Source: an uncultured Acidobacteriaceae bacterium
GTDB lineage: Bacteria > Acidobacteriota > Terriglobia > Terriglobales > Acidobacteriaceae
DNA length: 64,000 nucleotides
Direction of reading: 5' to 3'
NCBI GenBank assembly: GCA_963826845.1
Contig: CAWGYS010000025.1
Location: 1,606 to 65,605, forward strand
The position numbers and the translations under genes are program-made. Shown piece after piece: positions 41,692-55,262 of the stretch (the first letter of the stretch is position 1; each line of letters opens with the position of its first letter). The notes below the pieces were generated by a model, which was not told the origin of the DNA, did not search any database, and was given only the letters and a program-made list of their open reading frames with translations.

Positions 41692-41783
41692 CTGATGGAT
41701 TTTCCTCGAGGAAAGGATCAAATATATTACCTATCGATGTCGCCACGGGATGACCCCGCGAGCGAATTGTCGTCGCTCAGCTT

Positions 41784-44192
41784 TTAGTGACCCATGCCCT
41801 GCGCCGCCTCGAACTTGTGCTGGCATTCAGCGGCGGCTTGCACAATCTGGCGGAACTCCGGATCTCCGCGCACGCCCGCCAGCAGCGGATCGGACTCCAA
41901 TGCCTCGCGTGCGCAATAATTCCCGGCGACGGCTTGGCTCAAAAACGCGAATGCAATCTCTTTTTCGCCGCAAGCGGCCAGAATCGTGCCCTGGTGATAC
42001 TTCATCTCAGGATTCTGTTTGGCCAATAATTCGTTTTCTGCCTGCACCGCTAGCGGGTGGATATCCGTTGCCGGCGCCTTGGCCAGGCAGGCCTCGACCA
42101 ATCCCCGCATCCACATGGGATTGTCCGTCATCTGGGGCGCGGCTTGCTGCGCTTCCGCCGTCTTATCCTGCCGCATCAGCACGGATACTCGCACCGCATT
42201 CGACCACTCCGACCCCTCATCCTGTTCAAGAAATTTCATGGCGCGCGCCGTCTTTCCGGCCTCCGCAAAGGCAAGCGCGCACGTCCGCCAATTAAAGTTC
42301 GCGTCGATTGCCAGGGCTTTGTCGCACTCGCTCTGAGCCTCATCCAACTTCCCGGCATAGCGCAGCACATACGCCAGAGAAAAATGTGCAAACGCGCTGT
42401 CGGGACGCTTCTGCACCAGCACCCGTGCGTCGTCATAAGCCCGGTCGAGGTTTCCGCCCTCAGCTTCACTGGCCGCCAGCAGCCCCGCCGCGCTGACCCG
42501 TCCCGGTTCCAGCGCTAGGGCCTGCTTGTACGCTGCATTCGAACGCTGATATCCCGCCTCGCCACCGTCCGAGTAAATTGCATCGAAGTAATACCGGCGT
42601 CCCAGCACTTCCCATGCTGGCGCGTAACTCGGATCGAGGCTTACCACCTTCTCCAGGGTCGCAATCGCATCCTTGTTGGATTTGGCCTCGTGCGGGACGG
42701 ACAGCGTTTTCAAATATGCCTCATAGGCATCGCGGTTCGCCGGAGTGCTGCCCGTCTCCACCGGGCTACCCGTGATCCCCAAAGTCGGCACGAGTTCCTG
42801 GCGGACTTTTTTTGCCATCTGGTTCCGCAGGGCGAGCAAATTATCTGCCGGTGCGGTCAGTGCGCCCGTCCAGATCAGCCGATTGTCTTTTACCTCGATC
42901 GCCTCGAGCGTGACCTGCACCGTTTGGTCGTGACGCAGAAAGCGCCCTACCACCACAGTCCCCACGCCCAGTTCGCGTCCCGCTTTCGCTGGATCCACTC
43001 CCGCGGCGTATTTTTGTGTTGACGCCGAGGGCCGGACTTCCAGCGAATGCGCGTAAGTCAATGCGTTCGCAATCTCGTCTGCCAGTGCATAACCCAGGAA
43101 CTGACTCTCCGCGTCATTATTAATGTTCTGCAGCGGCAGCACCGCGATGGTTCGGTCGTCCGCCGTTACCGCCGGCACACGATGCCTGACGACCCATGTC
43201 CCCACCGCCGCCACCACCGTCACGAGCAATGCCGCCAATCCGAGAACGATCCACTTCAGCCTGGCACTCGAGGTCTGGAACGTCCTGGTCGTCGAGCGCA
43301 ATCCCGCGGCGTAAAGCAGCCCGCTATGCGCCGGCTCCGTTCCTTTCTGCAATCGAACCAGATCCGCTTTCATCTCGGTTGCGTTCTTGTAGCGCTGGTC
43401 GCGGTCCTTCTCCATCGCCTTGCCGATGATGGCTTCGAGCTCCGGCGGCACCGACGGGTTGATCGAGCGCGGCGATGCCGGCTTCGAGTTGATCACCGCA
43501 TGCAGCGTAGTCACCACGTTTGTTCCGGTGAACGGCTTCTTGCCCGTCGCCATTTCGAACAGCACCACGCCAAACGAAAATATGTCGCTGCGCACGTCCA
43601 GGTCTTCCGATTGCGCCTGCTCCGGCGACATATATACCGCCGTCCCGGGGATCACCCCTACCTGCGTCAAGGATTCATCCAGCGAAGAGTCCGTGGTCAT
43701 GCCCAGACTGTCGTCCTTGACCAGTTTTGCCAATCCAAAGTCCAGGATTTTCACCTGCCCGTCCGGCGTCAGAAAAATATTTGCCGGCTTGATGTCGCGA
43801 TGCACAATCCCTTTGGCGTGCGAAGCCGCGAGCGCGTCCGCAACCTGCACCGCAATATCGAGCAGGTCTTCAAGGTCGAGGGGCTGGCCATGTATCCGCT
43901 GCTTCAGGCTCTCGCCCTCAAGTTTCTCCATCACGATGAAGGGGTGACCGTCGTTCTCCTCGATATCGTGGATGGTGCAGATGTGCGGGTGGTTGAGCTG
44001 CGATGCGGCGCGAGCCTCGCGCGTGAATCGCTCCAGAGAAACCTTATTCTGCGCGAGGTGGTCGGGAATGAACTTCAGGGCGACATGCCGGCCCAGTCGG
44101 AGGTCTTCCGCCTCATAAACAATTCCCATTCCACCACCGCCAAGTTTTGACAGGACGCGGTAGTGGGAAATAGTTTGGCCGATCATGTCCAT
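41784..44192 (-). CDS. Ser/Thr protein kinase with periplasmic TolB-N-like and TPR domains
   Basis: Intact ORF. Kinase motifs are GGGGMGIVYEA, ALKFIP, HRDIKPANIFL, DFGLAK and GTAVYMSPEQ. A TM segment (WIVLGLAALLVTVVAAVGTWVV) follows. Next come IAVLPLQNINNDAESQFLGYALADEI and C-terminal TPR-like helices. The start is set at MDMIGQ (44192). The track ORF extends to 44285. Confidence 0.85.
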   Translation of the reverse strand: MDMIGQTISHYRVLSKLGGGGMGIVYEAEDLRLGRHVALKFIPDHLAQNKVSLERFTREARAASQLNHPHICTIHDIEENDGHPFIVMEKLEGESLKQRIHGQPLDLEDLLDIAVQVADALAASHAKGIVHRDIKPANIFLTPDGQVKILDFGLAKLVKDDSLGMTTDSSLDESLTQVGVIPGTAVYMSPEQAQSEDLDVRSDIFSFGVVLFEMATGKKPFTGTNVVTTLHAVINSKPASPRSINPSVPPELEAIIGKAMEKDRDQRYKNATEMKADLVRLQKGTEPAHSGLLYAAGLRSTTRTFQTSSARLKWIVLGLAALLVTVVAAVGTWVVRHRVPAVTADDRTIAVLPLQNINNDAESQFLGYALADEIANALTYAHSLEVRPSASTQKYAAGVDPAKAGRELGVGTVVVGRFLRHDQTVQVTLEAIEVKDNRLIWTGALTAPADNLLALRNQMAKKVRQELVPTLGITGSPVETGSTPANRDAYEAYLKTLSVPHEAKSNKDAIATLEKVVSLDPSYAPAWEVLGRRYYFDAIYSDGGEAGYQRSNAAYKQALALEPGRVSAAGLLAASEAEGGNLDRAYDDARVLVQKRPDSAFAHFSLAYVLRYAGKLDEAQSECDKALAIDANFNWRTCALAFAEAGKTARAMKFLEQDEGSEWSNAVRVSVLMRQDKTAEAQQAAPQMTDNPMWMRGLVEACLAKAPATDIHPLAVQAENELLAKQNPEMKYHQGTILAACGEKEIAFAFLSQAVAGNYCAREALESDPLLAGVRGDPEFRQIVQAAAECQHKFEAAQGMGH

Positions 44193-44309
44193 GTTTATCT
44201 GGGGGGGCGGAGATTCTTGTCCGCCTCCGTCGACTTTGATTCTAAACGCTGCGCCGGATGTTGGGCAGCGCTCGCGAAGGCGCAATGGTAGGCTGTCGTG
44301 CCGGTCGGG

Positions 44310-44954
44310 TCAACCGAGTACCTTGGGAAGGTTCCAGTGCCTCCAAACGCTGACGATGCGCAGCACAAAGCAGACAACGCCGCCCAATACCGCCGACCAT
44401 GTGGAAGAGAGTTTCAGCTTGCGACCTACGATCATTACTACCGCTCCGGCCATGGCGGCGGTGGCATAGATATCGGAGCGGAGGACTAAAGGCACACGCG
44501 CCAGGAAAATATCGCGGACAGTCCCGCCACCGACGGCTGTGACTGTGCCCAGCAAAACAGCGATGAAAGGGTTCATTTTATACAGCAGGGCTTTTTCGGT
44601 TCCAGCGACGGCGAACAGTGCCAGGCCGACAGCATCCAAAACCAGGATTACTTCGCCTGGGATTCCCTGAACGAATCGATACATGAAGAATACGATCGCG
44701 GCGCCCGTGAACGCCATTGCGGAGTATCGCCAATCACGCAGCGAACTAGGCGGGACGGCGCCGATCAGGAGGTCGCGAAAGATTCCTCCTGCTAACGCCG
44801 TGGAAAACGCCAGCACCATGAGCCCGAGGAGGTCGAGATCGCCATTGATCGCCGCCAGCGCACCCTCGATGCCAAAGAGGAGCGTTCCGGCCATATCGGC
44901 CGCGAATAATAGCGTGTTCGATGGGCGCTGCAAAGTTGAAGCTTCTGTTCGCAT
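44310..44954 (-). CDS. UPF0126 (YadS/TRIC-like) membrane protein
   Basis: It has two UPF0126 repeats. The first is DMAGTLLFGIEGALAAI...ALAGGIFRDLLIG. The second is LDAVGLALFAVAGTEKAL...TAVGGGTVRDIFL. The start is set at M59 of the track ORF (MRTEASTLQRP). Confidence 0.75.
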   Translation of the reverse strand: MRTEASTLQRPSNTLLFAADMAGTLLFGIEGALAAINGDLDLLGLMVLAFSTALAGGIFRDLLIGAVPPSSLRDWRYSAMAFTGAAIVFFMYRFVQGIPGEVILVLDAVGLALFAVAGTEKALLYKMNPFIAVLLGTVTAVGGGTVRDIFLARVPLVLRSDIYATAAMAGAVVMIVGRKLKLSSTWSAVLGGVVCFVLRIVSVWRHWNLPKVLG

Positions 44955-45004
44955 TTTCAGCCAGGAAATGAAATTAAAGTGACAGCCGGAGAAATCGCGA
45001 TCGT

Positions 45005-46192
45005 CTAAACACTCACCAGAGCCGCTGACGATCCCACCCACGCCATATTCTTGTTGTGATCCACGCCCATCATCAGTCCGCGGCCCATGCGCACGATCGT
45101 GAGCACCGGCAGCAGTTCGTCGAGCCACACATACATGATCCGCAATTCAACTTTAGTGAGCCCGTAAGGAGTCTCCACCACCGGCGTGAAGTTCAGACGC
45201 TCCTGCAAAATATATTCGCTACGCTTCGCCGCGGGAATCGCGTCGATGTCGGCGCGCGACGGCGCAATCACCACGCCCAGTCCGGCAAAAGAATAAAGCG
45301 GCTTGAGCACAAAATTCTCCAGATCAGCAGGCACTTCCGTCAGCTGATCCAGAAACCAGGTCCGCGGCACTGACGGATGCTTCAAATACGGAATCGAATA
45401 TTTACTGATCCGAAAATACCAGTTCGGATGCCCCGCCCACTCCACGTCCAGATCATCCCGCAAATCAAATGGCAGCTTGATTCCCTTGCGTTCCAGCTCA
45501 TCGACGATGGTGCGGTTATAAATTCGCTCAATCGGAACCCGCTTGCCGCCGTCATCATAAAAAAGCCGTCGCCCGTCTTTCTGAATCTTCGTGATGCACA
45601 CCGTCCGAATTCCAAGCAACTTCTCGGTCAGGAGAAAATCTGGACGCGTCTTCTGCTCTTCCGGGTGCACCTCCATCAATACGACATGCGCCGGATCATG
45701 TCCGGCAACAATCGCATCCTGCAGCACCCGCTTGTAAGAAGCCGAGTCCAGCCCGCTCAAGAAATAGCGAAGCGCCCGGTCGAGTCCAAAGACATCGATA
45801 TAAGCCTGTGCCAGAACCGGCTGGTAAGCGTAGAGGGAAGGGAAGGCCTGCAACTCAACCAACTTCGGCTGCAGTTCGCCCGTCGCATCCCGCACCAATC
45901 CAAAGTCCACCTGAATAAACATCGGATGCGGCGATTCATTCGGTACGCGAAACTCGGCCGGAATCGAAGCCTCTGAGCGCGCCCGATATTCGGGATTCTC
46001 CACTAACTGCTGGATCAGCGCTTTCCCATCCTCGCCCATGCGTTCGACCAGCGCATCAGGAAAGAAGCAAGGCGTCTCACAAAGTGCGAACGGAACTTCC
46101 ATCCCACAGCGCGCGGTCATCTCGCGCCGCAAGCGCTCGTATTTCTCAGAAGTGAATCGCGAGTTGAAGTCGTGGCGATAGGAGGGAATCAT
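45005..46192 (-). CDS. Conserved hypothetical, possibly a circularly permuted ATP-grasp-like amidoligase
   Basis: Intact 395 aa. The stretch FIQVDFGLVRDATGELQPKLVELQAFPSLYAY resembles the D-x-VRD-x-G...E-x-N/Q-x-x-PS..Y block of permuted ATP-grasp and glutathionylspermidine-synthase-type enzymes. Later come FVLKPLYSFAGLGVVI and RMGRGLMMGVDHN. The fold assignment is an inference from these motifs only. Confidence 0.45.
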   Translation of the reverse strand: MIPSYRHDFNSRFTSEKYERLRREMTARCGMEVPFALCETPCFFPDALVERMGEDGKALIQQLVENPEYRARSEASIPAEFRVPNESPHPMFIQVDFGLVRDATGELQPKLVELQAFPSLYAYQPVLAQAYIDVFGLDRALRYFLSGLDSASYKRVLQDAIVAGHDPAHVVLMEVHPEEQKTRPDFLLTEKLLGIRTVCITKIQKDGRRLFYDDGGKRVPIERIYNRTIVDELERKGIKLPFDLRDDLDVEWAGHPNWYFRISKYSIPYLKHPSVPRTWFLDQLTEVPADLENFVLKPLYSFAGLGVVIAPSRADIDAIPAAKRSEYILQERLNFTPVVETPYGLTKVELRIMYVWLDELLPVLTIVRMGRGLMMGVDHNKNMAWVGSSAALVSV

Positions 46193-46201
46193 TTGAGGCT
46201 C

Positions 46202-46789
46202 TTATTGGCAGTCACTAGGTTGGAGAGGAGAGTACATCCATGGCCAATAGTTCAACAACTCCGCCGCTTGTAGATCGAATTCCGGATTGTAGCGATGGAC
46301 GTGCGGGTCAGGTAAGCGGACTTCATCCATCTCGTCGAGACCGTTCTCATTTAAAACTGATCCGAAGGAATCGAGCGGGCCATATGCAAACAGGATCTGG
46401 TGACGATCGTAAACCAAGAGAAAAGACCTATCCGGCGCACCAATCCATAGATCATGGCGAGCGTCGCCTTCGAGAAAATCCCTAAATTTTCCAAGGAATT
46501 GGGTCAAATCATCACACGAAACAGGTTCGGGGCTTTGATATCTGCCCGCTGCCGCGTCGCTGCGAGGTGTATGCAGGACGTAGAGCAGAAAATGAGGTTC
46601 CGGCATCACAGCGGCAAGCTTCAATAGGACGTCGACTTGGCCAAAGGAAGGGGCAATGACGAGACGACTCGGGCCGGATGTCTTTTCCCGCGCCCAAATG
46701 TTTTTATGCCGGTACGGAAGTTCAGCTCCCGCTTCGTCGATGTACCCGAATTTGAAGAGGGCGGCCAAGATGCTAGAGAAGGGGCGCAC
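46202..46789 (-). CDS. Hypothetical protein (no recognisable motif)
   Basis: Intact 195 aa with a GTG start. It is packed 9 nt upstream of the next gene in the cluster. Confidence 0.5.
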   Translation of the reverse strand: MRPFSSILAALFKFGYIDEAGAELPYRHKNIWAREKTSGPSRLVIAPSFGQVDVLLKLAAVMPEPHFLLYVLHTPRSDAAAGRYQSPEPVSCDDLTQFLGKFRDFLEGDARHDLWIGAPDRSFLLVYDRHQILFAYGPLDSFGSVLNENGLDEMDEVRLPDPHVHRYNPEFDLQAAELLNYWPWMYSPLQPSDCQ

Positions 46790-46865
46790 CGAATCGTTCG
46801 TCCGCTGCTGTCCAATACGAGTTTAGCTTTTCTCGGCGCACTCCGCGTCTCGGCGGTGAAAAGCC

Positions 46866-47924
46866 CTACGCCTCAATCAGAAACTTCCCGTCGCGCATAA
46901 TCTGCTCGCCATCGACCCAGATGTCGAAATTCCGTCCCACGACATCAATGTGGGTCGACGAATACCACTCCGCTCCGGTGTGCGCGCCATAGGGATTTCC
47001 AAACGCAATATGCACGCCCGGGTACTTCTCGTCCTGCAATATCTGCCCGATCACGTCCTTCAATTCGATGTTTGTCCCGATGGCGAATTCGCCCACGCGG
47101 TTGCTGTTTTCATCGGTATGCGTGTAGGCCCAGAAATCGTCTTTCAATTCCTTGTTCGCCGAGTGCGCCTCGATCACGCGATTGCCCTTTACGTTGACAG
47201 TCAACGGATGCGCCTTCAAATCGCCAAACTTCGCGCACAAATAGTCGCCGACGACGCCGTCAATCACAAACGTGCCGTTCACCTCGCCCGGCGCTGTGAA
47301 CACTTCGCCGCCCGGAAGGTTCCCCCACTTTTCGGTGGTGATCATGCCGCTCGTCTTCACCCATCGGTAATTAGGATTCAAATCCGCCACCAGGTCGGTC
47401 CCGGACGGTGTCTTCGCTCGAATCTGTTTTGCTTTAAGAACCGTCTCCAGAACCTTGGCGCTGAGACGATCGACTTTCAGGAAGTCCGCGCGCATGCCTT
47501 CCATCATGATCTGCTTATTGATGTTGACCATGTGGGCGTGCCGGATTTTGTGCCGGTTGACCACGTCCGTCATCTGCATGCGCGACTTCAGTTCGTTGGC
47601 TTGCGCTTGCACCGCAAAGATGCTGACCTGGCTCGTTTCCAGATCCTCGGCGATCGCCAGCGGAAAGTCCGTCAACGGACGAGTCGCCACATCCTCCAGC
47701 ACCCACGTTTGATACCGGCAGCCGACTGCTTCCAGTTCGTGCACGATCGCAGCCGCGATCTCCAGAGTCACTTCATCGGTGATGACCGTGATTTTTTCCG
47801 AAGGGTGCACATGCAGGCAAACGCGCACCGCATTTCGCGCACCCGCCGTCAGTTCCGGATCAAATGCCAGCTTGTTCAGTTGTCGGTTGGATTGTTCTGC
47901 AGTATTCAAAGAAGTATTCATCAA
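46866..47924 (-). CDS. M29-family aminopeptidase (AmpS/PepS/aminopeptidase T-like)
   Basis: Intact 352 aa. Motifs are GNLPGGEVFTAP, GTFVIDGVVGD, RVGEFAIGTN, QILQDEKYPGVHIAFG and STHIDVV. Confidence 0.8.
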   Translation of the reverse strand: MMNTSLNTAEQSNRQLNKLAFDPELTAGARNAVRVCLHVHPSEKITVITDEVTLEIAAAIVHELEAVGCRYQTWVLEDVATRPLTDFPLAIAEDLETSQVSIFAVQAQANELKSRMQMTDVVNRHKIRHAHMVNINKQIMMEGMRADFLKVDRLSAKVLETVLKAKQIRAKTPSGTDLVADLNPNYRWVKTSGMITTEKWGNLPGGEVFTAPGEVNGTFVIDGVVGDYLCAKFGDLKAHPLTVNVKGNRVIEAHSANKELKDDFWAYTHTDENSNRVGEFAIGTNIELKDVIGQILQDEKYPGVHIAFGNPYGAHTGAEWYSSTHIDVVGRNFDIWVDGEQIMRDGKFLIEA

Positions 47925-47929
47925 ACTTA

Positions 47930-49069
47930 TTAGACGGCCCGTGCGGTGGGCAAACTATCCACCTCGTCCACGCCCACCTCAGTCTCCTCAATGATGTAGT
48001 CCACCACGGCTTTCATGTCGCCGGTCCTGCGATATACGTCCAGCTGCCGGTCAGCGCCCGTGCCCATCTTCATAATCTCACGGATGTACTCCACTTCCTG
48101 CCGGCTACCAAGTTCGTCCACCACGTCATCGACGAACTCCAGATATTCTTCGATCAGGTCGCGTTCCGAAACCTCGGTCTGCTTGCCGAAGTCGATCAGC
48201 TTCCCGTTGATCCCATAGCGCGCCGCCCGCCACTTGTTCTCCATCAGCAGCGACTTTCGGTACAGCCGGAATCCCTGGTTCTGAGTGTAGAGCTTGTAGA
48301 GCTTCGCCACCGTTGCCTGGATCAGCGCTGCCAGCGCGATCGTCTCGTCCAACCGCATCGGCAGATCGCAGACCCGGAACTCCAGTGTATTAAAGAATGG
48401 ATGCGGCCGGATGTCCCACCAGATTTTCTTCGCGTTATCGATCGAGTTCGTCTTAACCAGCAACTTGACGTAATTTTCGTACTCGCCCCAGCTGGGGAAA
48501 TAATCCGGCAGGTTGGTTCGCGGAAATTTGTCGAACACCTTGCAGCGATAAGATTTCAGCCCCGTATCCATGCCCAGCCAGAATGGCGAATTCGATGAAA
48601 GCGCCAGCAGGTGCGGCACAAAATAGCGCGCATGATTCATCATCTGGATCAGGAGCTCGCGATCCTCGATGCCGACGTGCACGTGTAGACCAAAAATCAG
48701 GTTTGCCCGCGCCACGAGCTGCATATCCTGCACAATATTCTTGTAACGCTCGCCCGGCGTCACTTCCTGCACCCGCCAATCCGCGAACGGATGGGTCGCC
48801 GCGGAAGCCAGCCGCAGACCATTTTCTCGCGACAGGCGGATCATGTGCCAGCGCAGCTTCTTCAGTTCTTCGCGGGCTTCTTTGATATTGGCGCAAACCG
48901 AAGTCCCCACCTCAACCACCGATTGGTGCATCTCGGTCTTGACCCGTTCCTGCAGGATCAATTTGCCCTTCTCGATGATCTCGGCATGAATATGCGACCG
49001 CAGATCCCGAGTTTCAGGATCGACGGTCTGATATTCTTCTTCGATTCCGAGCGTGAATGTAGGCTTCAT
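47930..49069 (-). CDS. Carboxylate-amine ligase, glutamate-cysteine ligase family 2 (YbdK/GCS2-like)
   Basis: MKPTFTLGIEEEYQTVD..., EMHQSVVEVGT, GLHVHVG, LLALSSNSPFW.G.DTGLKSYR and WWDIRPHPFFNTLEFRVCD. ATG 49069 is preferred. The track ORF starts at GTG 49180 with a low-complexity 37-aa extension. Confidence 0.85.
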   Translation of the reverse strand: MKPTFTLGIEEEYQTVDPETRDLRSHIHAEIIEKGKLILQERVKTEMHQSVVEVGTSVCANIKEAREELKKLRWHMIRLSRENGLRLASAATHPFADWRVQEVTPGERYKNIVQDMQLVARANLIFGLHVHVGIEDRELLIQMMNHARYFVPHLLALSSNSPFWLGMDTGLKSYRCKVFDKFPRTNLPDYFPSWGEYENYVKLLVKTNSIDNAKKIWWDIRPHPFFNTLEFRVCDLPMRLDETIALAALIQATVAKLYKLYTQNQGFRLYRKSLLMENKWRAARYGINGKLIDFGKQTEVSERDLIEEYLEFVDDVVDELGSRQEVEYIREIMKMGTGADRQLDVYRRTGDMKAVVDYIIEETEVGVDEVDSLPTARAV

Positions 49070-49187
49070 CGCGGCATCCAGAGCTGCCAGGCGGGACACG
49101 CTGGCAGAAGCCCTTCTAGTATAGCAATGAGAAGCCTGTGTGGGGACAGGCTTTGCGCCGTCCGGGCGGGGGTCCGCCACCGCAAGC

Positions 49188-50171
49188 CTATGCCTTCTTC
49201 CTCACCTTTGGAGCGCGGCTCTCCACTAACGTCGGCCCATTCAGAAATGCTGCCCAGCGCAATTCCTCGACTGGATTTACTCCGTCGAGCGCCTTCTTCA
49301 CCGCCATCTCTGCCACCGCGTCCACAATCCACTCGAAATTGTGTTGCCCGACCGATGTAACCTCTGCATCCGGAGCCGGATTCATGAAGTCGATCGCATA
49401 GGGCACGCCGCCCTCCACCGCAAACTCCACCGTATTCAGGTCGTAGCCCAGAGCGCGGCATAAGGCCAGCGCATCCTTCTCAATCCGTTCCTTCAACGCG
49501 GTTCCGGGCTGCGGGTTGCCCTTCACATAGCGCTCGTGATGTGGAGCCTTCGGGTCGTACTTCATGATGTGCACTTTCTCTTGCCCCACCACGTAGCAGC
49601 GGTAATAATCCTCAAACTCGACGCCATGCTGCAGCGTCATGCAGAGATCGCCCGTCCGGTTGTAGTTATGAAAAAATTCCTCCGGCGAATCCACCTTATA
49701 TACGTGCTTCCAACCGCCGCCCGAATACGGTTTCAAGAACGCCGGAAACCCGACATAGGCAAACAACTCTTCCCAGTTCAGCGGATACATCAAGTTCCGC
49801 ATCGACTGATCGGTGGTATCCGGCGGATGCTCGTGATGGGGCAAAATCACCGTAGGCGGAATCGCTACGCCCATTTTGTGTGCCAGTGCGTAATTGAAAA
49901 ACTTGTCATCTGCCGTCCACCAGAACGGATTGTTAATCACAATCGTCCCCTGCAGCATCGCGTTCTTCAAGTACGCCCGGTAAAAAGGAATGTCCTGCGA
50001 AATCCGGTCGATGATGACGGCGTACTTCTTGGGCTCATCCATACGGATGCCGCCAATCTTCACGAACTCGGCCGTGACGCCCTCGGTCTTCATCGAATTA
50101 ATCTTCTCGACCAATGCTGGCGGGAAGGTGTTCTCCATCCCGAAAAGAATCCCGATTTTCTTGTTTGCCAT
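49188..50171 (-). CDS. ATP-grasp domain ligase (RimK/GshB-like fold; unassigned subfamily)
   Basis: Intact 327 aa. Motifs are DKFFNYALAHKMGVAIPPTV, GFPAFLKPYSGGGWKHVYKVDSPEEF, YYRCYVVGQEKVHIMKYDP and NTVEFAVEGGVPYAIDFMNPAPDA. The layout matches an ATP-grasp P-loop, a central beta-sheet and a Mg-binding E/N block. Confidence 0.7.
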   Translation of the reverse strand: MANKKIGILFGMENTFPPALVEKINSMKTEGVTAEFVKIGGIRMDEPKKYAVIIDRISQDIPFYRAYLKNAMLQGTIVINNPFWWTADDKFFNYALAHKMGVAIPPTVILPHHEHPPDTTDQSMRNLMYPLNWEELFAYVGFPAFLKPYSGGGWKHVYKVDSPEEFFHNYNRTGDLCMTLQHGVEFEDYYRCYVVGQEKVHIMKYDPKAPHHERYVKGNPQPGTALKERIEKDALALCRALGYDLNTVEFAVEGGVPYAIDFMNPAPDAEVTSVGQHNFEWIVDAVAEMAVKKALDGVNPVEELRWAAFLNGPTLVESRAPKVRKKA

Positions 50172-50226
50172 AATTCAAATCCTTTTCTAAATCTTGCTAG
50201 TGGAGCACGGCGTCCCCGTCACCGCC

Positions 50227-50937
50227 CTAAAAATATTTCGCCGCCATCCGCTGCCACAGCGGCCAATCATGCTTGCTGTTGTCCCCGTAAATATCCAGCC
50301 AATGCGGAATTGCCTTCGCGTGCAGAATCGCCGACATCTTCACATTGGCGTCCAGGCACATGTCCCAATCCGATGTTCCCAGCACAATTTTCATCTGCCG
50401 GATGCGGCTGAGAAACCAATCGTCGCTCATGTTCGGCAAATAGTCCGTGGGACTGTTGAAGTAGACATTGTCGTCGTAGTAGCCGTCGAGGAAGCTCTTG
50501 ATCTCGAACGATCCGCTCATGGTTACGCAAGCCGAAACCACGTCAGGATGGCGCATGGAAAAATTCAGCGCGTGATAGCCGCCAAAGCTGCATCCCGTCA
50601 CCGCGATCTGTGGAGCCCAGTTCTTCCACTTCAAGTAACCCATAAATTCGTTGATCACGTAACGCTCATACTGCACATGCCGCCAGATGCGCGCTCCCGG
50701 ATGGACGCTCTTGTTGTACCAGCTCTCGCCGTCCACGCCATCCACGCAGAACACCTGAATAGACCCCGCTTCCAGTTTCCCCGCCAGCGCGCGGATCATC
50801 CCTGCGTCTTCGTACTCGAAATACCGTCCCATAGATGTAGGAAAAACGAGGATCGGTCGTCCGGCGTGTCCGAACACCAGCGACTCCATGTCGCGCCCTA
50901 ATTCCTGGCTGTATTCTTTGCGATATTCGCGATTCAT
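50227..50937 (-). CDS. Alpha/beta-hydrolase esterase (putative-esterase / esterase-D-like family)
   Basis: MNREYRKEYSQELGRDMESLVFGHAGRPILVFPTS..., the nucleophile elbow VTGCSFGGYHAL, and a late His in KHDWPLW. ATG 50937 is preferred over the track start GTG 50976. Confidence 0.75.
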   Translation of the reverse strand: MNREYRKEYSQELGRDMESLVFGHAGRPILVFPTSMGRYFEYEDAGMIRALAGKLEAGSIQVFCVDGVDGESWYNKSVHPGARIWRHVQYERYVINEFMGYLKWKNWAPQIAVTGCSFGGYHALNFSMRHPDVVSACVTMSGSFEIKSFLDGYYDDNVYFNSPTDYLPNMSDDWFLSRIRQMKIVLGTSDWDMCLDANVKMSAILHAKAIPHWLDIYGDNSKHDWPLWQRMAAKYF

Positions 50938-51077
50938 GTGCGCGAGGATTGTAACCGATTGGCACGTCTTCGGCACCCGTTCGGAAAGGCACTTCTCGGC
51001 CGCAGGGCTTAGCCAAGCGAAGCAGTGCGTTTAACATTCGGCCCGAAGGACCACTTAGAATGTGTTGCGAGAATACT

Positions 51078-53729
51078 CTAAGGATGTCCTGACCGCGGAT
51101 TGATTCCCAAATGTTTAATCTTGGATTGCAGCGTAGTCCGCTTCAGCCCCAAGCGCGTGGCTGCACCTCTCAGCCCGCCAATCTGGCCGTGGCTGTCCCT
51201 TAGAGCGCGCAGAATATGCTCGCGTTCCGTTGCCTCCAGAGTTTCATCCACGAACTTACGCTCCACCGCGTTCGGGCCCATCTCGCTTAACGGCGACACC
51301 AGCACCGAACCCTGCGTCAGGATCACCGACCGCTCGACAAAATTCTCCAGCTCCCGCACATTCCCCGGCCACTCCCACCCTATTAGTGCATCCATAGTTT
51401 TCCTGGGAATGCTAGTAATCTGCTTGTTCATCCGCCGGGAAAACTTCTGCACAAAATGTTCCACCAGCAATGGGATGTCCTCCCGCCGTTCGCGCAACGG
51501 CGGCACGCGAATCGGGAACACGTTCAGCCGGTAATACAAATCGCTGCGAAACTCATTTTGCCGTACGACATCTGCCAGATCGCGGTTCGTCGCCGCAATC
51601 AAGCGAAAGTCCACTTTCAACGTCTGCGTCCCGCCTAGGCGTTCGAATTCCTGATCCTGTAGCACCCGCAGCAGCTTAGGCTGCAGCGCCAGCGAAATTT
51701 CCCCGATTTCGTCTAGAAACAGCGTGCCCTTGTCCGCCAGTTCGAGTCGTCCAATCTTCCTGCTCACCGCTCCCGTAAACGCGCCCTTTTCATTGCCGAA
51801 CAGCTCACTCTCCAGCAGGCCCGACGGAATCGCCGCGCAATTCAGTTTGACGAAGCTGTTGTTAACACGCTGGCTTAGGCGGTGGATCGCCCGTGCCACC
51901 AGTTCCTTCCCTGTCCCCGTTTCGCCGAGCAGCAGCACTGTGGCATCGCTGGCCGCCACTTTCCCCACCTGCTCCATAACCGATTGCAGGGCTTTACTCT
52001 GCCCTACGATCTCGCCAAATCCCAGTTCTGTATCGATCTCCTGCTCCAGATAAAGTTTCTCTTCCGTAAGCTTTTTCTTTGCTTCGCACAGTTCTTGCAT
52101 CAGGCCCACGATGGCCTCTTCTGACTGTCTCCGCTCGGTGACATCCTGCGCCAGACCCATGTGCCACCGGTGCGTATCCCCTTTATCCCACATCGGCACC
52201 ACCAGAATCTTTACCCAGCGCACCGATCCATCCGGTCGAAGATACCTTTTTTCCATTTCGTAATTTGCCAGCTTTTCCTCCGCCAAATCGTGGAAGTATT
52301 CATTTCCCTGCCGAACATCGTCGGGGTGGGTAATGCTCCCGACGTCGATCTGCAGCAGTTCATCTTCGCTGCGCCCGGTGATTTCGCAATATTTCGGATT
52401 GACTTGCAGGAAGCGCCCGGTGCGGGAATCGACCAGAGCGATGCCAATCGGAGAGCGCTCGTACACCGTCCGGAACCGCAATTCGCTTTCTCGCAACGCA
52501 TCCTCTGACCGTTTCTGCTCCGTGATGTCGCGCATGACGCATGCCACGCGATCGATTCCTGTCGCACCTTCTACCGGCAGATACGTGACTGCTATATCCC
52601 TCACGCCCACCCCTGGATATTGATACTTGACCTCGTAGTTGACGACTTTTCCACGGAAACACTCATTCAGTTTTTCCTTGACCACGGTTTCATAGACCTC
52701 GGGGATTATTAACTCCGCTAAGGAGTGTCCTACAACCTGTTCTTTCGTCATTCCCCGATGCCTAAATAACGCCTGGTTCGCGAGTACGTACCGATGTTCC
52801 CGGTCCACCACTACGATCATTTCTTCCAGATGCTCCACTACTCTTTCGAACTCTCGAAGCCGCTCCTCCGCCCGCTTCCGCTCGGTGATGTCTCGCGATA
52901 TGGACACGCTATATTCCCGGTCCAGTTGTACTCGCCGCATATTTACTTCCACTGGGAACGTTGTCCCATCTCTTCGACGGTGCACCGTTTCCATGATCGC
53001 GAATCCTGACTCCTGCAAGTGCTGCCGAACCCGCGCGACCAAGATGTCGTCGGCGTTCGGGTCGATGTCACGAACCGTCAGGGATAGAAGTTCGTTGCGG
53101 GTATAACCCAGTTCCGCGCATGCCTTCTCATTTACATCGAGAAAACGCAGGGTTTCCGGATCAATTACCTTGATGGCATCGTTCGATTGGTCCAGCAACG
53201 TCCGGAACAGCGTCAACTCGCGTACCGTCCGCTCTCGGTCTTCAGCCGTCCTTACCAGTTGTTCGTTGGTCACGCGCAGCGCCTTCTCTGCCCGCATCCG
53301 CTCCGTGACGTCGTGCGCGATCCCCCGCACTATCGCTGTCCCCACTCCCTCGGTGCGCAGCGTGTTGTGATACTCCCAGACGCGCTGCTCGCCCGATCGC
53401 GTGATTACCGCCAAGAGGCCGCGAGCTTCCCCCGCGCGCGCGATCTCGCCCAGATAGGCATCGAATTGCGCGCGGAATTGCGGGTCGACAAAATCCCGCA
53501 TCGGCTTCTCCATCATTTCTTCTACGCTGTAACCCAGCAGACGCGCTGGAACGGGATTGACCGACAGGAATCGGCCTTCAAGATCGTGGGCACACAACAA
53601 GTCTTGGCTGTGCTGAACTAAATCGCGATACCAGTCTCCGTCTTGTTCCAGGTCCCGCCGGATCGGGTCCCACGTGACTGGCAATTCTTCCGGAAAGCGG
53701 CGCTTTTGTTCCCCAGGGTGCAATGCCAT
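51078..53729 (-). CDS. Sigma54-dependent transcriptional activator with four PAS domains, an AAA+ domain and a Fis-type HTH
   Basis: Intact 883 aa. Repeated PAS blocks end in ...DVTERMRAE, DITERKRAE, DITEQKRSE and DVTERRQSE. The AAA+ sigma54-interaction domain carries LLLGETGTGKELVARAIH, ESELFGNEKGAFTGA and RFRSDLYYRLNVFPI. The C-terminal HTH reads AATRLGLKRTTLQSKIKHLGI. Confidence 0.9.
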   Translation of the reverse strand: MALHPGEQKRRFPEELPVTWDPIRRDLEQDGDWYRDLVQHSQDLLCAHDLEGRFLSVNPVPARLLGYSVEEMMEKPMRDFVDPQFRAQFDAYLGEIARAGEARGLLAVITRSGEQRVWEYHNTLRTEGVGTAIVRGIAHDVTERMRAEKALRVTNEQLVRTAEDRERTVRELTLFRTLLDQSNDAIKVIDPETLRFLDVNEKACAELGYTRNELLSLTVRDIDPNADDILVARVRQHLQESGFAIMETVHRRRDGTTFPVEVNMRRVQLDREYSVSISRDITERKRAEERLREFERVVEHLEEMIVVVDREHRYVLANQALFRHRGMTKEQVVGHSLAELIIPEVYETVVKEKLNECFRGKVVNYEVKYQYPGVGVRDIAVTYLPVEGATGIDRVACVMRDITEQKRSEDALRESELRFRTVYERSPIGIALVDSRTGRFLQVNPKYCEITGRSEDELLQIDVGSITHPDDVRQGNEYFHDLAEEKLANYEMEKRYLRPDGSVRWVKILVVPMWDKGDTHRWHMGLAQDVTERRQSEEAIVGLMQELCEAKKKLTEEKLYLEQEIDTELGFGEIVGQSKALQSVMEQVGKVAASDATVLLLGETGTGKELVARAIHRLSQRVNNSFVKLNCAAIPSGLLESELFGNEKGAFTGAVSRKIGRLELADKGTLFLDEIGEISLALQPKLLRVLQDQEFERLGGTQTLKVDFRLIAATNRDLADVVRQNEFRSDLYYRLNVFPIRVPPLRERREDIPLLVEHFVQKFSRRMNKQITSIPRKTMDALIGWEWPGNVRELENFVERSVILTQGSVLVSPLSEMGPNAVERKFVDETLEATEREHILRALRDSHGQIGGLRGAATRLGLKRTTLQSKIKHLGINPRSGHP

Positions 53730-54004
53730 GGCTCACCCCACAGCGAGCCGCGTGGAACGCTCGATTCCAACTGGCCAGATCTGTTCCAGCAGTCGCCCAA
53801 TTTTTGTAGCGCCTAGAAGCCCCTCGATCATGCCCTCTAAGCTTCGCCTGTTTGTGACTTATGCCTTTTTGAACTTGTCCGAGTTACCTCGGTCTTATAG
53901 CTCTTTAGCGGGAAAGTCTAACACAGTATAGTTTTGCCGCAATTTTTGCGAAATACCACTTTAGTGCTCGGATGCCACCGGGCTGGCAATCCTACTCACG
54001 ACGC

Positions 54005-54274
54005 CTAAGTGCCAAATCTTTCGGCGGCACGAGCTTTGGCCTTGGCTGCCTCTTCTTCTCGATTCTTCGGCGGCGCATTGGTGTCGAGCACGTGGAGAAG
54101 GCGGGCGGAGATATCGGCGATTTCGTCGATGGCAGCCAGGAACGCGGCTTCGTTGGCCTTCGACGGTTTATTAAAGCCGGTGATTTTCCTAACGAATTGC
54201 AGCGAAGCGGCTCGGACCTCATCGTCGGTGACGGGCGGGTCGAAGTTAAAGAGGGTTTTTATGTTCCGGCACAT
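54005..54274 (-). CDS. DUF2277-like small protein
   Basis: 89 aa: MCRNIKTLFNFDPPVTDDEVRAASLQFVRKITGFNKPSKANEAAF.... This matches my memory of the conserved DUF2277 N-terminus (MCRNI..L.NF.PPAT..E..AAALQ.VRK.SG). Confidence 0.65.
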   Translation of the reverse strand: MCRNIKTLFNFDPPVTDDEVRAASLQFVRKITGFNKPSKANEAAFLAAIDEIADISARLLHVLDTNAPPKNREEEAAKAKARAAERFGT

Positions 54275-54493
54275 TCGGTTGTTACCTCTCAGTGCGCCTC
54301 GACAGATCGGAACTCCCAGGGACGTGAGAGCGTTTCGTCCGGTCAGACTCGAGGGGCTAACTATCCACGATATTTTCTCATTTTTCCTCGTTAATAAGCA
54401 CTTCGCGATTGGGGGAGGGCCGGTTTTGACGACGTCGGGCTCGGGAGCTGCCTCAATTGGCGCCGACCAGCCTCTCGCGCTTTGCGAGGATAG

Positions 54494-54517
54494 TGGTACC
54501 GTGGTACATTTGTACCA
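54494..54517. promoter_or_regulatory. Candidate operator: TGGTACC + TGGTACA-tt-TGTACCA overlapping the start codon of the RHH-like gene
   Basis: tggtacc lies at 54494..54500. tggtaca (54502..54508) and tgtacca (54511..54517) form a perfect 7-bp inverted repeat with a 2-nt spacer. The final A is the A of ATG 54517. Confidence 0.4.
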
Positions 54518-54834
54518 TGATCCATGAATCGCAACTCCTGATCGAGCGCGTGCAGACTGGCGTCCGTATGGAAAAGCGCCTCCTCAAGGTTCTCAAGGCT
54601 CTTGCCGAATATCACGACATGTCTCTCGGCGACTTGCTCGAAGGCATCGTACTCCACGCCTTCGACGGAAAAGTGCCCTTCAGCTCCGAATCGCTCAAAC
54701 GCATTCGCGACCTGAAGAAGTTCTACGCCCTCGATCTCGACTCCAGCGCCAGCCACCGCCTGACCGAAAGGCGACGACTGGCAGCAAAAACCAAGGCTGT
54801 TTCAGCGAAGCGAAACTTGGGTGGCCGAAAATGA
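54517..54834 (+). CDS. Hypothetical small protein, possibly ribbon-helix-helix DNA-binding
   Basis: 105 aa from ATG 54517. TGVRMEKRLLKVLKALAEYHDMSLGDLLEGIVLHAF has the beta-strand/helix/helix spacing of CopG/Arc-type RHH domains. This is inference only. A basic tail follows. Confidence 0.5.
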   Translation: MIHESQLLIERVQTGVRMEKRLLKVLKALAEYHDMSLGDLLEGIVLHAFDGKVPFSSESLKRIRDLKKFYALDLDSSASHRLTERRRLAAKTKAVSAKRNLGGRK

Positions 54835-55223
54835 CCGGCGAGGATCTGATCCGAGAATTCGAGCAAGGCGCCACTCCGGCGAACACGTTCCACCACGCCG
54901 ACCACGTCCGGCTGGCCTTTGAGTATCTGTGCCGATATTCGGCGCTCGAAGCGCTGCAACGATTCTCGGATGCGTTGCAGCGGTTTGCCGCAGCGCAGGG
55001 CAAAGCGCAGCGTTACCACGAGACGATAACTTGGGCCTACCTGCTTCTGATCCGTGAGCGCATCGCCCGAGCCGGCAGCGCCCAGTCGTGGGAAGAATTC
55101 GCTGAGCGCAACCCTGACCTGCTCGTCTGGAAAGGCGGCATGCTGACGACCCTCTATCGTCAAGAGACACTCGACTCCGACCTCGCCCGCCAAACCTTCG
55201 TTCTCCCTGATCGGATCCTCTAG
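54831..55223 (+). CDS. Hypothetical helical protein, translationally coupled to the preceding gene
   Basis: Intact 130 aa. Its ATG overlaps the upstream stop (ATGA at 54831..54834). I recognise no motif (FHHADHVRLAFEYL...YHETITWAYLLLIRERI). Confidence 0.55.
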   Translation: MTGEDLIREFEQGATPANTFHHADHVRLAFEYLCRYSALEALQRFSDALQRFAAAQGKAQRYHETITWAYLLLIRERIARAGSAQSWEEFAERNPDLLVWKGGMLTTLYRQETLDSDLARQTFVLPDRIL

Positions 55224-55262
55224 TACTTTTCACGGCACGAGTCTCCAAGCTTTGGAATTTCC

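Follow-up and report, generated by a model that had tools for sequence, protein, structure and literature searches.

A cluster of five genes encoding three ATP-dependent amide-bond ligases and two hydrolases was found on the minus strand of the DNA analyzed here, a window of 64,000 nucleotides from an uncultured Acidobacteriaceae bacterium (GenBank assembly GCA_963826845.1, contig CAWGYS010000025.1, positions 1,606 to 65,605). The ligases are a member of the GCS2/YbdK family, a classical ATP-grasp enzyme (AG), and a circularly permuted ATP-grasp enzyme (G6). The hydrolases are an esterase (EST) and an M29-type metallohydrolase, and in other lineages the position of the latter is held by a protein with the fold of a class-I glutamine amidotransferase (GATase). 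We favor, with a probability of roughly 55%, a reading in which this locus directs an operon-like, ribosome-independent assembly of a small gamma-glutamyl-type peptide: the three ligases would build the peptide and cap it with a further amine, and a cognate hydrolase would trim the product or reverse its formation. The five core genes are as follows.

50227..50937, minus strand: EST, a PF00756-type alpha/beta-hydrolase (esterase); core gene 1, called by Pfam and an alignment of orthologues
49188..50171, minus strand: AG, a classical, non-permuted ATP-grasp ligase without a Pfam model; core gene 2, called by fold search
47930..49069, minus strand: GCS2/YbdK-type carboxylate-amine ligase with a glutamine-synthetase fold (NF010039); core gene 3, called by Pfam and NCBIfam
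46866..47924, minus strand: M29-type metallohydrolase, aminopeptidase-like (PF02073); core gene 4
45005..46192, minus strand: G6, a circularly permuted ATP-grasp ligase; core gene 5, called from a structure model

An earlier note on this DNA, made from the letters alone, had described a unit of seven co-oriented minus-strand genes separated by gaps of 5–118 nucleotides. All seven were recovered from the list of open reading frames (ORFs) where they had been placed, and with revised start sites the gaps measure 55, 118, 5, 76, 9, and 50 nucleotides. The conserved unit, however, was found to comprise only the five genes above. The other two members, an orphan ORF between the M29 gene and G6 and a gene for a UPF0126 membrane protein after G6, are confined to 3 of 80 loci and to the nearest six loci, respectively.

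Conservation of the Gene Cluster

One genome per species of the Terriglobia was scanned with G6, and 80 loci were obtained in which G6 is 64–92% identical to the window protein. Gene presence was counted by tblastn and ORF clustering in the 69 loci that have at least 5 kb of upstream sequence. The genes are found on one strand in the order EST, AG, GCS2, M29, and G6; all 69 loci have the GCS2 and M29 genes, 67 have AG, and 66 have EST. The junction between GCS2 and M29 has a median gap of −1 nucleotide and a maximum of no more than 300 nucleotides, and it is never interrupted. The junctions between AG and GCS2 (49070–49187 in the window) and between M29 and G6 (46790–46865) often hold unrelated small passenger genes across the 80 loci (L001–L080). 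These passengers include DUF1801 at the first junction in 14 loci, SnoaL_2 at the second in 10 loci, a small membrane protein in 5 loci, and an M48 peptidase. A compact version of the cluster, with abutting or overlapping genes, was found in locus L086, whose G6 shares 52% identity with that of the window.

When metagenomes were scanned with a diverse alignment as the seed, 80 loci were recovered, their G6 proteins being 37–46% identical to the window protein. The dominant layout in these loci is EST, AG, GCS2, a GATase-like gene, and G6, with the GATase-like gene in the slot of M29. Its product is about 280 residues long, has the class-I GATase fold (PF00117, 31 bits), and matches no named amidotransferase family above the cut-off. 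All 46 sequences compared have Cys110, His213, and Glu215. Among the 57 metagenome loci with at least 1 kb of upstream sequence, a hydrolase is encoded directly upstream of G6 in 45 (42 GATase-like and 3 M29). Where at least 5 kb is available (35 loci), AG and GCS2 are each present in 20, and 17 have both of these along with a hydrolase; variants that lack GCS2 or AG also exist. From these arrangements the cluster appears to consist of two modules, one of EST, AG, and GCS2 and the other of the hydrolase and G6. The two halves are convergent in locus L135 and lie several kb apart in loci L151 and L154. Since the modules are kept together through such rearrangements, a functional link between them is better supported than it would be by inherited gene order.

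The taxonomy of these loci was obtained from exact-sequence and homology look-ups. The order EST, AG, GCS2, GATase-like gene, and G6 was found in the Cyclobacteriaceae, Chitinophaga, Hymenobacter, and Arenibacter. The Cyclobacteriaceae genera with the cluster are Cecembia, Fontibacter, Aquiflexum, Algoriphagus, Belliella, and Rhodonellum, and a clean five-gene operon is seen in locus L169. A Saprospiraceae locus (L091) carries AG, the GATase-like gene, and G6. An M29-type cluster was located in a metagenome-assembled genome of the Verrucomicrobiota (L162). The neighborhood first picked out from a single stretch of DNA is thus kept across the Acidobacteriota and two further phyla, the Bacteroidota, where many members have it, and the Verrucomicrobiota. 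The same order in 80 Terriglobia species genomes and in other phyla takes the clustering far beyond chance, and chance adjacency of the genes was rejected.

The exchange of M29 for a GATase-like protein bears on the reaction catalyzed by G6. If the Bacteroidota protein were a glutaminase subunit that feeds ammonia to G6, as in MurT/GatD, then G6 would amidate a carboxylate, and the M29 of the Terriglobia would be an unrelated replacement. The invariant Cys-His-Glu triad and the abutment of the GATase-like gene on G6 in 42 loci are in line with this proposal. We nevertheless consider it very unlikely, because M29, which cannot supply ammonia, is found in exactly the same slot in the Terriglobia, the Verrucomicrobiota, and some other lineages, and because no named amidotransferase family claims the GATase-like protein.

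In 14 metagenome loci, a small cupin_2 gene follows G6 (L103, L106, L107, L115, L126, L130, L131, L136, L137, L140, L143, L144, L152, and L154). In most of these, G6 and the GATase-like gene are flanked by genes for predicted secreted amidohydrolases, amidases, or GDSL proteins rather than by ligase genes. The order in locus L084 is GCS2, G6, and cupin.

G6 Is Predicted To Be a Permuted ATP-Grasp Ligase

An AlphaFold2 model of G6, computed from a diverse family alignment, was obtained with a mean predicted local distance difference test score (pLDDT) of 95.6 and a predicted template modeling score (pTM) of 0.93. When the model was searched against the PDB with Foldseek, all 21 matches at E ≤ 0.001 were found to belong to the permuted ATP-grasp class. 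They comprise the glutathione or glutathione-like synthetases of human, yeast, soybean, and nematode, the structure 3n6x, YgiC and YjfC of Escherichia coli, the E-64 ligase Cp1B, and the glutathionylspermidine synthetase (GspS) of E. coli. The best matches (8fbz, 1m0w, 2hgs, 3n6x, 7uk8, 9cjn, and 2io7) have E values from 1e-15 to 4e-10, whereas classical ATP-grasp enzymes match the model only at E > 0.01.

The order of the motifs agrees with the model. G6 contains a DFGLV...VELQAFPSL block at residues 96–120, and the Mg-site block D96...E113-L-Q115-x-x-P lies N-terminal to K297-P...G304-x-G306. In the neighboring AG the order is the opposite, with K147-P...GGGW before D261/N264. G6 is therefore circularly permuted relative to the classical enzyme encoded beside it, and the earlier guess that 45005..46192 is a third, permuted ATP-grasp ligase is borne out by both the fold and the motif order. 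An alignment of 53 diverse family members has 13 invariant columns, which include D96, E113, Q180, R227, K264, K297, E349, R351, and R368; Q115 is nearly invariant.

By sequence, the nearest solved proteins reached by the G6 family profile are YgiC and YjfC. The profile matches the PDB sequences of YgiC (7uk8) at E 1.6e-4 and of 3n6x at E 0.008, and hhalign pairs G6 with YgiC at 92% probability over about 70 residues around the VLKPLxSxxGxGV loop. No Pfam or NCBIfam family matches G6, and the window protein gives no match to PF03738, PF04174, or PF14403 even at E ≤ 10. Scores below the cut-offs were obtained for G6 homologues: 11–15 bits versus 29.3 for GSP_synth (PF03738), 11.7 versus 23.1 for CP_ATPgrasp_1 (PF04174), and 17.7 versus 32 for CP_ATPgrasp_2 (PF14403).

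The G6 family contains at least 8000 clusters at 90% identity. The best 120 of these are at least 89% identical to G6, the source names given for them all read "hypothetical protein", and they come from the Terriglobales where an organism is given. At the 50% level, an exhaustive search of cluster representatives gave 1301 clusters, among which are full-length relatives with as little as 31% identity. Some homologues in UniRef have been machine-named "Circularly permuted type 2 ATP-grasp protein" or "Glutathionylspermidine synthase". As judged from the structure model, G6 represents a large unmodelled family that is added to the class of permuted ATP-grasp enzymes containing eukaryotic glutathione synthetase, GspS, and YgiC.

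Two kinds of longer G6 homologue were encountered. Four proteins that are 47–54% identical to G6 (P0121, P0122, P0133, and P0135) have mutually homologous N-terminal extensions of 157–189 residues with a signal-peptide-like start. Such an extension is odd for an ATP-dependent ligase, and the context recovered for these proteins is a short contig only (L171). In P0132 (L172, 9001–11613), a Na+/solute symporter domain (PF00474) is fused N-terminally to the G6 domain, and the gene stands alone without other genes of the cluster. This fusion hints that G6 in the P0132 lineage acts on an imported solute.

The GCS2 and AG Ligases

The earlier note had placed two ligases of different folds side by side, and this was confirmed by the adjoining GCS2 and AG genes. 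The GCS2 protein matches PF04107 at 225 bits (cut-off 21) over profile positions 1–290 of 291, and it matches the NCBIfam model NF010039, "carboxylate-amine ligase", at 555 bits (cut-off 371). The GhExE signature of the Mg/ATP site, as defined for the GCS2 family (PMC2588565), is present as GIEEE at residues 8–12. The orthologue from the Bacteroidota clusters also falls in NF010039, at 526 bits, and so this model appears in effect to mark the GCS2 protein of the five-gene cluster. The score on the glutamate–cysteine ligase model NF010043 is 378 bits, below its cut-off of 409, and the scores on other glutamate–cysteine equivalogs are lower.

AG has no Pfam match at E ≤ 0.01, including to the GshB domains GSH-S_N and GSH-S_ATP, and is not assigned to GshB. 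Its score on the RimK-family model TIGR00768 is 23.3 bits against a cut-off of 143.4, and it is not placed in that family either. The AlphaFold2 model of AG is moderately confident (pLDDT 70). In a Foldseek search it matches Ddl, ArgX/LysX, RimK, and microviridin-type macrocyclases about equally well, at E of about 1e-11 and 13–17% identity (16–17% to the RimK structures), and the AG profile matches Ddl 3r23 at 1e-4. The AG proteins of the Terriglobia and the Cyclobacteriaceae are 53–55% identical, with more than 120 invariant columns, and the family has at least 8000 clusters at 90% identity. On the evidence of the model and profiles, AG is best described as a classical ATP-grasp enzyme of no named subfamily. 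None of the three ligases falls in the RimK, cyanophycin, or another characterized pathway; placement in such a pathway was what the earlier note had named as speaking against its proposal.

The relatives of AG raise the question of whether the substrate could be a protein. The ligases would then add amino acids or a peptide to it, as RimK does to ribosomal protein S6, as enzymes of the tubulin-tyrosine-ligase type do, or as in PafA/Dop pupylation, and the two hydrolases would remove the tag. The nearest structures to AG include RimK and the LysW-dependent ArgX/LysX, the GCS2 fold is shared with the Pup ligase PafA (PMC2588565), and the unusual conservation of AG across phyla is what would be expected for a conserved macromolecular substrate. 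However, the compact operons neither contain nor adjoin a conserved small ORF, carrier, or tag gene, the AG score on the RimK model (23 bits) falls short of the cut-off of 143, and all characterized relatives with the G6 fold act on small molecules. Protein tagging has, in our estimation, a small but real chance of being the correct explanation.

A gene for an ATP-grasp_4 protein (36 bits) was observed in convergent orientation just downstream of G6 in loci L093, L094, L100, L108, and L127. It could represent a fourth ligase in some lineages.

The Hydrolases

EST scores 25.5 bits on PF00756 (Esterase; cut-off 22, a marginal match) and 28.3 bits on Abhydrolase_1, and its profile matches the PF00756 esterases 5vol and 6vh9 in the PDB. 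The GCSFGG nucleophile elbow is found at residue 128, and S130, D205, and H236 do not vary among 18 orthologues drawn from different phyla. The earlier call of an esterase with this elbow was upheld, but the link then drawn to S-formylglutathione hydrolases amounts to a resemblance within the PF00756 family. No S-formylglutathione hydrolase model in NCBIfam matches EST; the only matches are weak ones to MetX and enterochelin esterase (17–21 bits). A second PF00756 esterase gene, with a better score (88 bits), was seen divergently upstream of the Bacteroidota-type cluster in 13 loci, among them L090, L092, L104, L132, L138, L147, L153, L165, and L166.

The assignment of 46866..47924 to the M29 family holds, with 61 bits on PF02073 (cut-off 27), and the match covers profile positions 202–370 of 406, the C-terminal half only. 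Residues E207, E279, H305, H325, and D327 are invariant. The profile matches the aminopeptidase AmpS (1zjc) at 6e-7 and, more weakly, the dioxygenase NicX (7cn3) at 5e-4. E207, E279, and H305, which we take to be metal ligands, align with the Glu/Glu/His positions of AmpS. The protein is predicted to be an aminopeptidase-like hydrolase, with NicX-like chemistry as the alternative. Because invariant catalytic residues or motifs are present in each of them, all five core proteins appear to be catalytically intact.

The properties of EST, GCS2, and G6 could also be accommodated by a glutathione-like, low-molecular-weight thiol, which the earlier note had offered as one possible product. The GCS2 protein would then be a gamma-Glu-Cys ligase, AG an analogue of GshB, G6 the enzyme that adds a third residue or a polyamine, and EST an enzyme acting on thioesters of the thiol. 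Proven gamma-Glu-Cys ligases are members of the Pfam family GCS2, and the score of the window protein on NF010043 is 378 bits; the best structural matches of G6 are glutathione synthetases and GspS; and PF00756 includes enzymes of the esterase D type, with 6vh9 among the matches of the EST profile. In addition, gshA-B have been reported to be absent from these phyla (PMC6282198). Against these points, the GCS2 score falls short of the 409 bits required by NF010043, and the protein belongs instead to NF010039, a family with no assigned substrate. AG matches no GshB model, and no gene for cysteine or sulfur metabolism is linked to the cluster. Such a thiol also becomes less necessary in view of the bacillithiol or N-methyl-bacillithiol predicted for the Acidobacteria and Bacteroidetes, the production of which has been shown in one Bacteroidetes strain, Polaribacter (PMC6282198). 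We regard a thiol of this kind as quite unlikely.

Proposed Pathway

In the gamma-glutamyl peptide assembly that we favor, the GCS2 enzyme would act first: it would convert a carboxylate, which from the precedent of its family would be that at the gamma position of glutamate, to an acyl-phosphate and join it to an amino compound. Enzymes of the GCS2 type phosphorylate a carboxylate, typically the gamma-carboxylate of glutamate, and couple it to an amine (PMC2588565). In the second step AG would add a further residue, and in the third G6 would phosphorylate the terminal carboxylate of the peptide and join it to another amine, either an amino acid or a polyamine. Classical ATP-grasp enzymes extend peptides. 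All characterized enzymes with the G6 fold link a small acid, or the carboxylate of a peptide, to an amine: glutathione synthetase adds glycine to gamma-Glu-Cys, and GspS adds spermidine to a peptide. Cp1B, which has the same fold as G6, ligates epoxysuccinate, a small diacid, to an amino acid. YgiC and YjfC carry the RefSeq product name of peptide-spermidine ligases and are so described in the passage of PMC12568646 that cites Pederick 2023. The hydrolase encoded directly upstream of G6 (M29, or the GATase-type protein with its Cys-His-Glu triad in the Bacteroidota) would then reverse the reaction or trim the product. The exchange of these two hydrolases at one position hints at the type of bond in the product. 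EST, with its intact triad, has no assignable substrate in this scheme.

The earlier note had proposed a ribosome-independent module for a gamma-glutamyl compound. Its core is supported by the conserved set of ligases and hydrolases and by the absence of a cis-encoded precursor or tag ORF, for which the compact operons L086 and L169 leave no room; the order of the steps, the substrates, and a small-molecule product are the parts that we infer. The analogy to glutathione synthesis drawn in the same note has been strengthened, since the resemblance of the third ligase is to glutathione synthetase and GspS, both of which follow GshA.

Several observations weigh against this pathway. The GATase-like protein may instead be an ammonia-feeding glutaminase for G6, and its functional equivalence with M29 is a presumption. 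Many G6 homologues occur without GCS2 or AG, so G6 is not strictly dependent on the first module. The identity of 53–55% between AG proteins of different phyla would also fit a conserved macromolecular substrate, and the AG model is of moderate confidence at a pLDDT of 70. EST has no place in a simple scheme of peptide assembly. Finally, the pathway is read from the gene content, folds, catalytic motifs, and conservation across phyla.

A more specific proposal, to which we give only a slim chance, is that the product may be an undiscovered gamma-glutamyl peptide capped by an amine or polyamine. It would be a bacterial counterpart of glutathionylspermidine and trypanothione, possibly thiol-bearing, and widespread in the Acidobacteriota, Bacteroidota, and Verrucomicrobiota. 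G6 and its hydrolase, M29 or the GATase-like enzyme, would form a dedicated pair that controls how much of it is present.

Comparison with Known Systems

The closest known system in logic is the sequence of GshA, GshB, and the GspS synthetase/amidase, and YgiC and YjfC are the nearest known proteins to which G6 can be related by sequence. The cluster resembles the first of these in having what would be three successive ATP-dependent carboxylate-amine ligations, the first by an enzyme with a glutamine-synthetase-like fold, the second by a classical ATP-grasp enzyme, and the third by a member of the structural class of G6 (2io7, E 4e-10). It also resembles E. coli GspSA, a fused synthetase/amidase, in that a dedicated hydrolase is coupled to the last ligase. 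However, the amidase here is a separate protein of the M29 or GATase type and not a fused CHAP domain. The cluster differs further in that AG has no GSH-S match in Pfam, the G6 homologues remain below the GSP_synth cut-off, and an esterase has been added.

Like G6, E. coli YgiC and YjfC have the permuted ATP-grasp fold, and they are of similar size (386 vs 395 residues). The homology of G6 to YgiC is, however, detectable only in a stretch of approximately 70 residues that surrounds the Lys-Gly loop. In its own gene context, ygiC comes after ygiB, a DUF1190 gene, and, unlike G6 in the cluster, has no GCS2, ATP-grasp, or hydrolase partner. The best structural matches of G6 are the eukaryotic-type glutathione and homoglutathione synthetases (8fbz, 1m0w, and 2hgs; E 1e-15 to 1e-14, template modeling score about 0.6), which are circularly permuted in the same way and extend a gamma-glutamyl dipeptide by an amino acid at its C-terminal carboxylate. 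G6 is nevertheless only 12–16% identical to them and about 80 residues shorter, and nothing points to the use of gamma-Glu-Cys or glycine. G6 is also of the same fold class as the CP_ATPgrasp_1/2 families (3n6x, E 2e-14, a structure named "putative glutathionylspermidine synthase"). These families pair with alpha-E and transglutaminase genes; in the Pfam-annotated neighborhoods of G6, no transglutaminase or other such partner gene was found.

The combination of a ligase with the glutamine-synthetase fold and a hydrolase with the class-I GATase fold is shared with PuuA/PuuD. This pairing suggests a catabolic or salvage role, in which an amine or peptide from the environment would be gamma-glutamylated or otherwise ligated and later released by the hydrolases, as occurs with putrescine in the PuuA/PuuD pathway. 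The fusion of one G6 homologue to a Na+/solute symporter and the secreted amidase, amidohydrolase, and GDSL genes that adjoin some G6 loci would fit such a role. The cluster differs from PuuA/PuuD, however, in having no oxidase or dehydrogenase genes, in having two further ligases, and in the replacement of the GATase-type enzyme by M29 in the Terriglobia. No conserved oxidoreductase or aminotransferase that could transform a tagged amine is present, a degradative route would hardly warrant three ligations that each consume ATP, and there is no conserved transporter, the UPF0126 gene being limited to the nearest relatives. A catabolic or salvage function is thus unlikely in our view.

No description of the five-gene cluster was found in a full-text literature search covering GCS2/YbdK, ATP-grasp, GATase, esterase, and Acidobacteria; the amidoligase survey of Iyer et al. 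(2009) lay outside this search, and an earlier in silico mention is possible. The cluster belongs to a known kind, the amidoligase pathways that are independent of nonribosomal peptide synthetases, and is not paradigm-breaking. Three amide ligases of three architectures that span phyla and are tied to two hydrolases point to a conserved small-molecule metabolism, the product of which might serve as a cofactor, protect against stress, or buffer redox state or nitrogen. In soil, the Terriglobia rank among the most abundant bacteria. The G6 and AG families are huge, each with at least 8000 clusters at 90% identity, nearly all annotated as "hypothetical", and the cluster would thus represent an abundant pathway across three phyla without a known product. 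Its presence in the culturable genera Chitinophaga, Algoriphagus, Hymenobacter, and Arenibacter opens it to direct experiment.

Neighboring Genes and Gene Calls

The following genes lie within or beside the core cluster.

51078..53729, minus strand: sigma54 activator with four PAS domains, a sigma54 AAA+ domain, and a helix-turn-helix domain, upstream of the cluster; identified by profile scan
46202..46789, minus strand: orphan ORF of 195 residues between M29 and G6, real but accessory; no family match
44310..44954, minus strand: UPF0126 (PF03458) membrane protein with two PF03458 repeats, lineage-specific and outside the core
41784-44285, minus strand: Ser/Thr kinase with tetratricopeptide repeats (TPR), downstream of the cluster

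The orphan ORF had been described as having no recognized motif, and it remained without a match in Pfam, NCBIfam, PADLOC, PHROGs, and the PDB. Its orthologues were found only in loci L001, L024, and L069 of the 80 Terriglobia loci, always between M29 and G6. They are 48–58% identical with 62 invariant columns, which shows that the orphan is a real gene, and it is one of the junction passengers. When the orphan was compared with the extra domains of the longer G6 homologues, no relation was found.

The membership of 44310..44954 in UPF0126 was confirmed by a score of 144.6 bits on PF03458 ("Gly_transporter"; cut-off 23.5) in two matched stretches, but its membership in the cluster was not. Across the 80 loci, G6 is followed by this gene in no more than the window itself and five close relatives (L001, L003, L004, L012, and L016), and the gene is absent from the clusters of the Bacteroidota and Verrucomicrobiota. 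The sigma54 activator reported immediately upstream is indeed present on the same strand. It is, however, a lineage-specific neighbor, with only partial matches (cover 0.5–1.0) in 13 of the 16 closest loci. No sigma54 −24/−12 promoter (TGGCAC-N5-TTGCW) with two or fewer mismatches was found on the minus strand between 50937 and 51078, and matches of this type occur across the window at the level of chance (28 observed versus 32.6 expected). A sigma54-dependent operon is not supported, since the promoter is missing upstream of EST and the activator is only partly conserved nearby.

Scans of the locus for sigma70-type promoters and terminators gave counts at or below chance, and an Rfam scan of 43800..51400 at E ≤ 1 returned no riboswitch or other RNA element. 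An origin in a defense system or phage was rejected, as PADLOC and PHROGs gave no match for any cluster protein tested. The start of EST was reset to an internal ATG at 50937 from an alignment with 17 orthologues, giving a protein of 236 residues; the ORF is open to 50976. The start of the UPF0126 gene is at 44954, for a protein of 214 residues.

The best match to the TPR kinase is found on the same strand 1–7 kb downstream of G6 in most Terriglobia loci, with 53–80% identity and a cover of 0.7–1.0 in nearly all; in locus L086 a nearby kinase has a different architecture. This proximity could be conserved synteny or noise from paralogues. Many long ORFs antisense to real genes were also seen when both strands of the window were examined from 41750 to 55250, for example, 46950..47933 (plus strand, 327 residues) opposite M29 and 49536..50411 (plus strand, 291 residues) opposite AG. 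These are taken to be shadow ORFs of a GC-rich genome because it is the minus-strand readings, M29 and AG, that match protein families.

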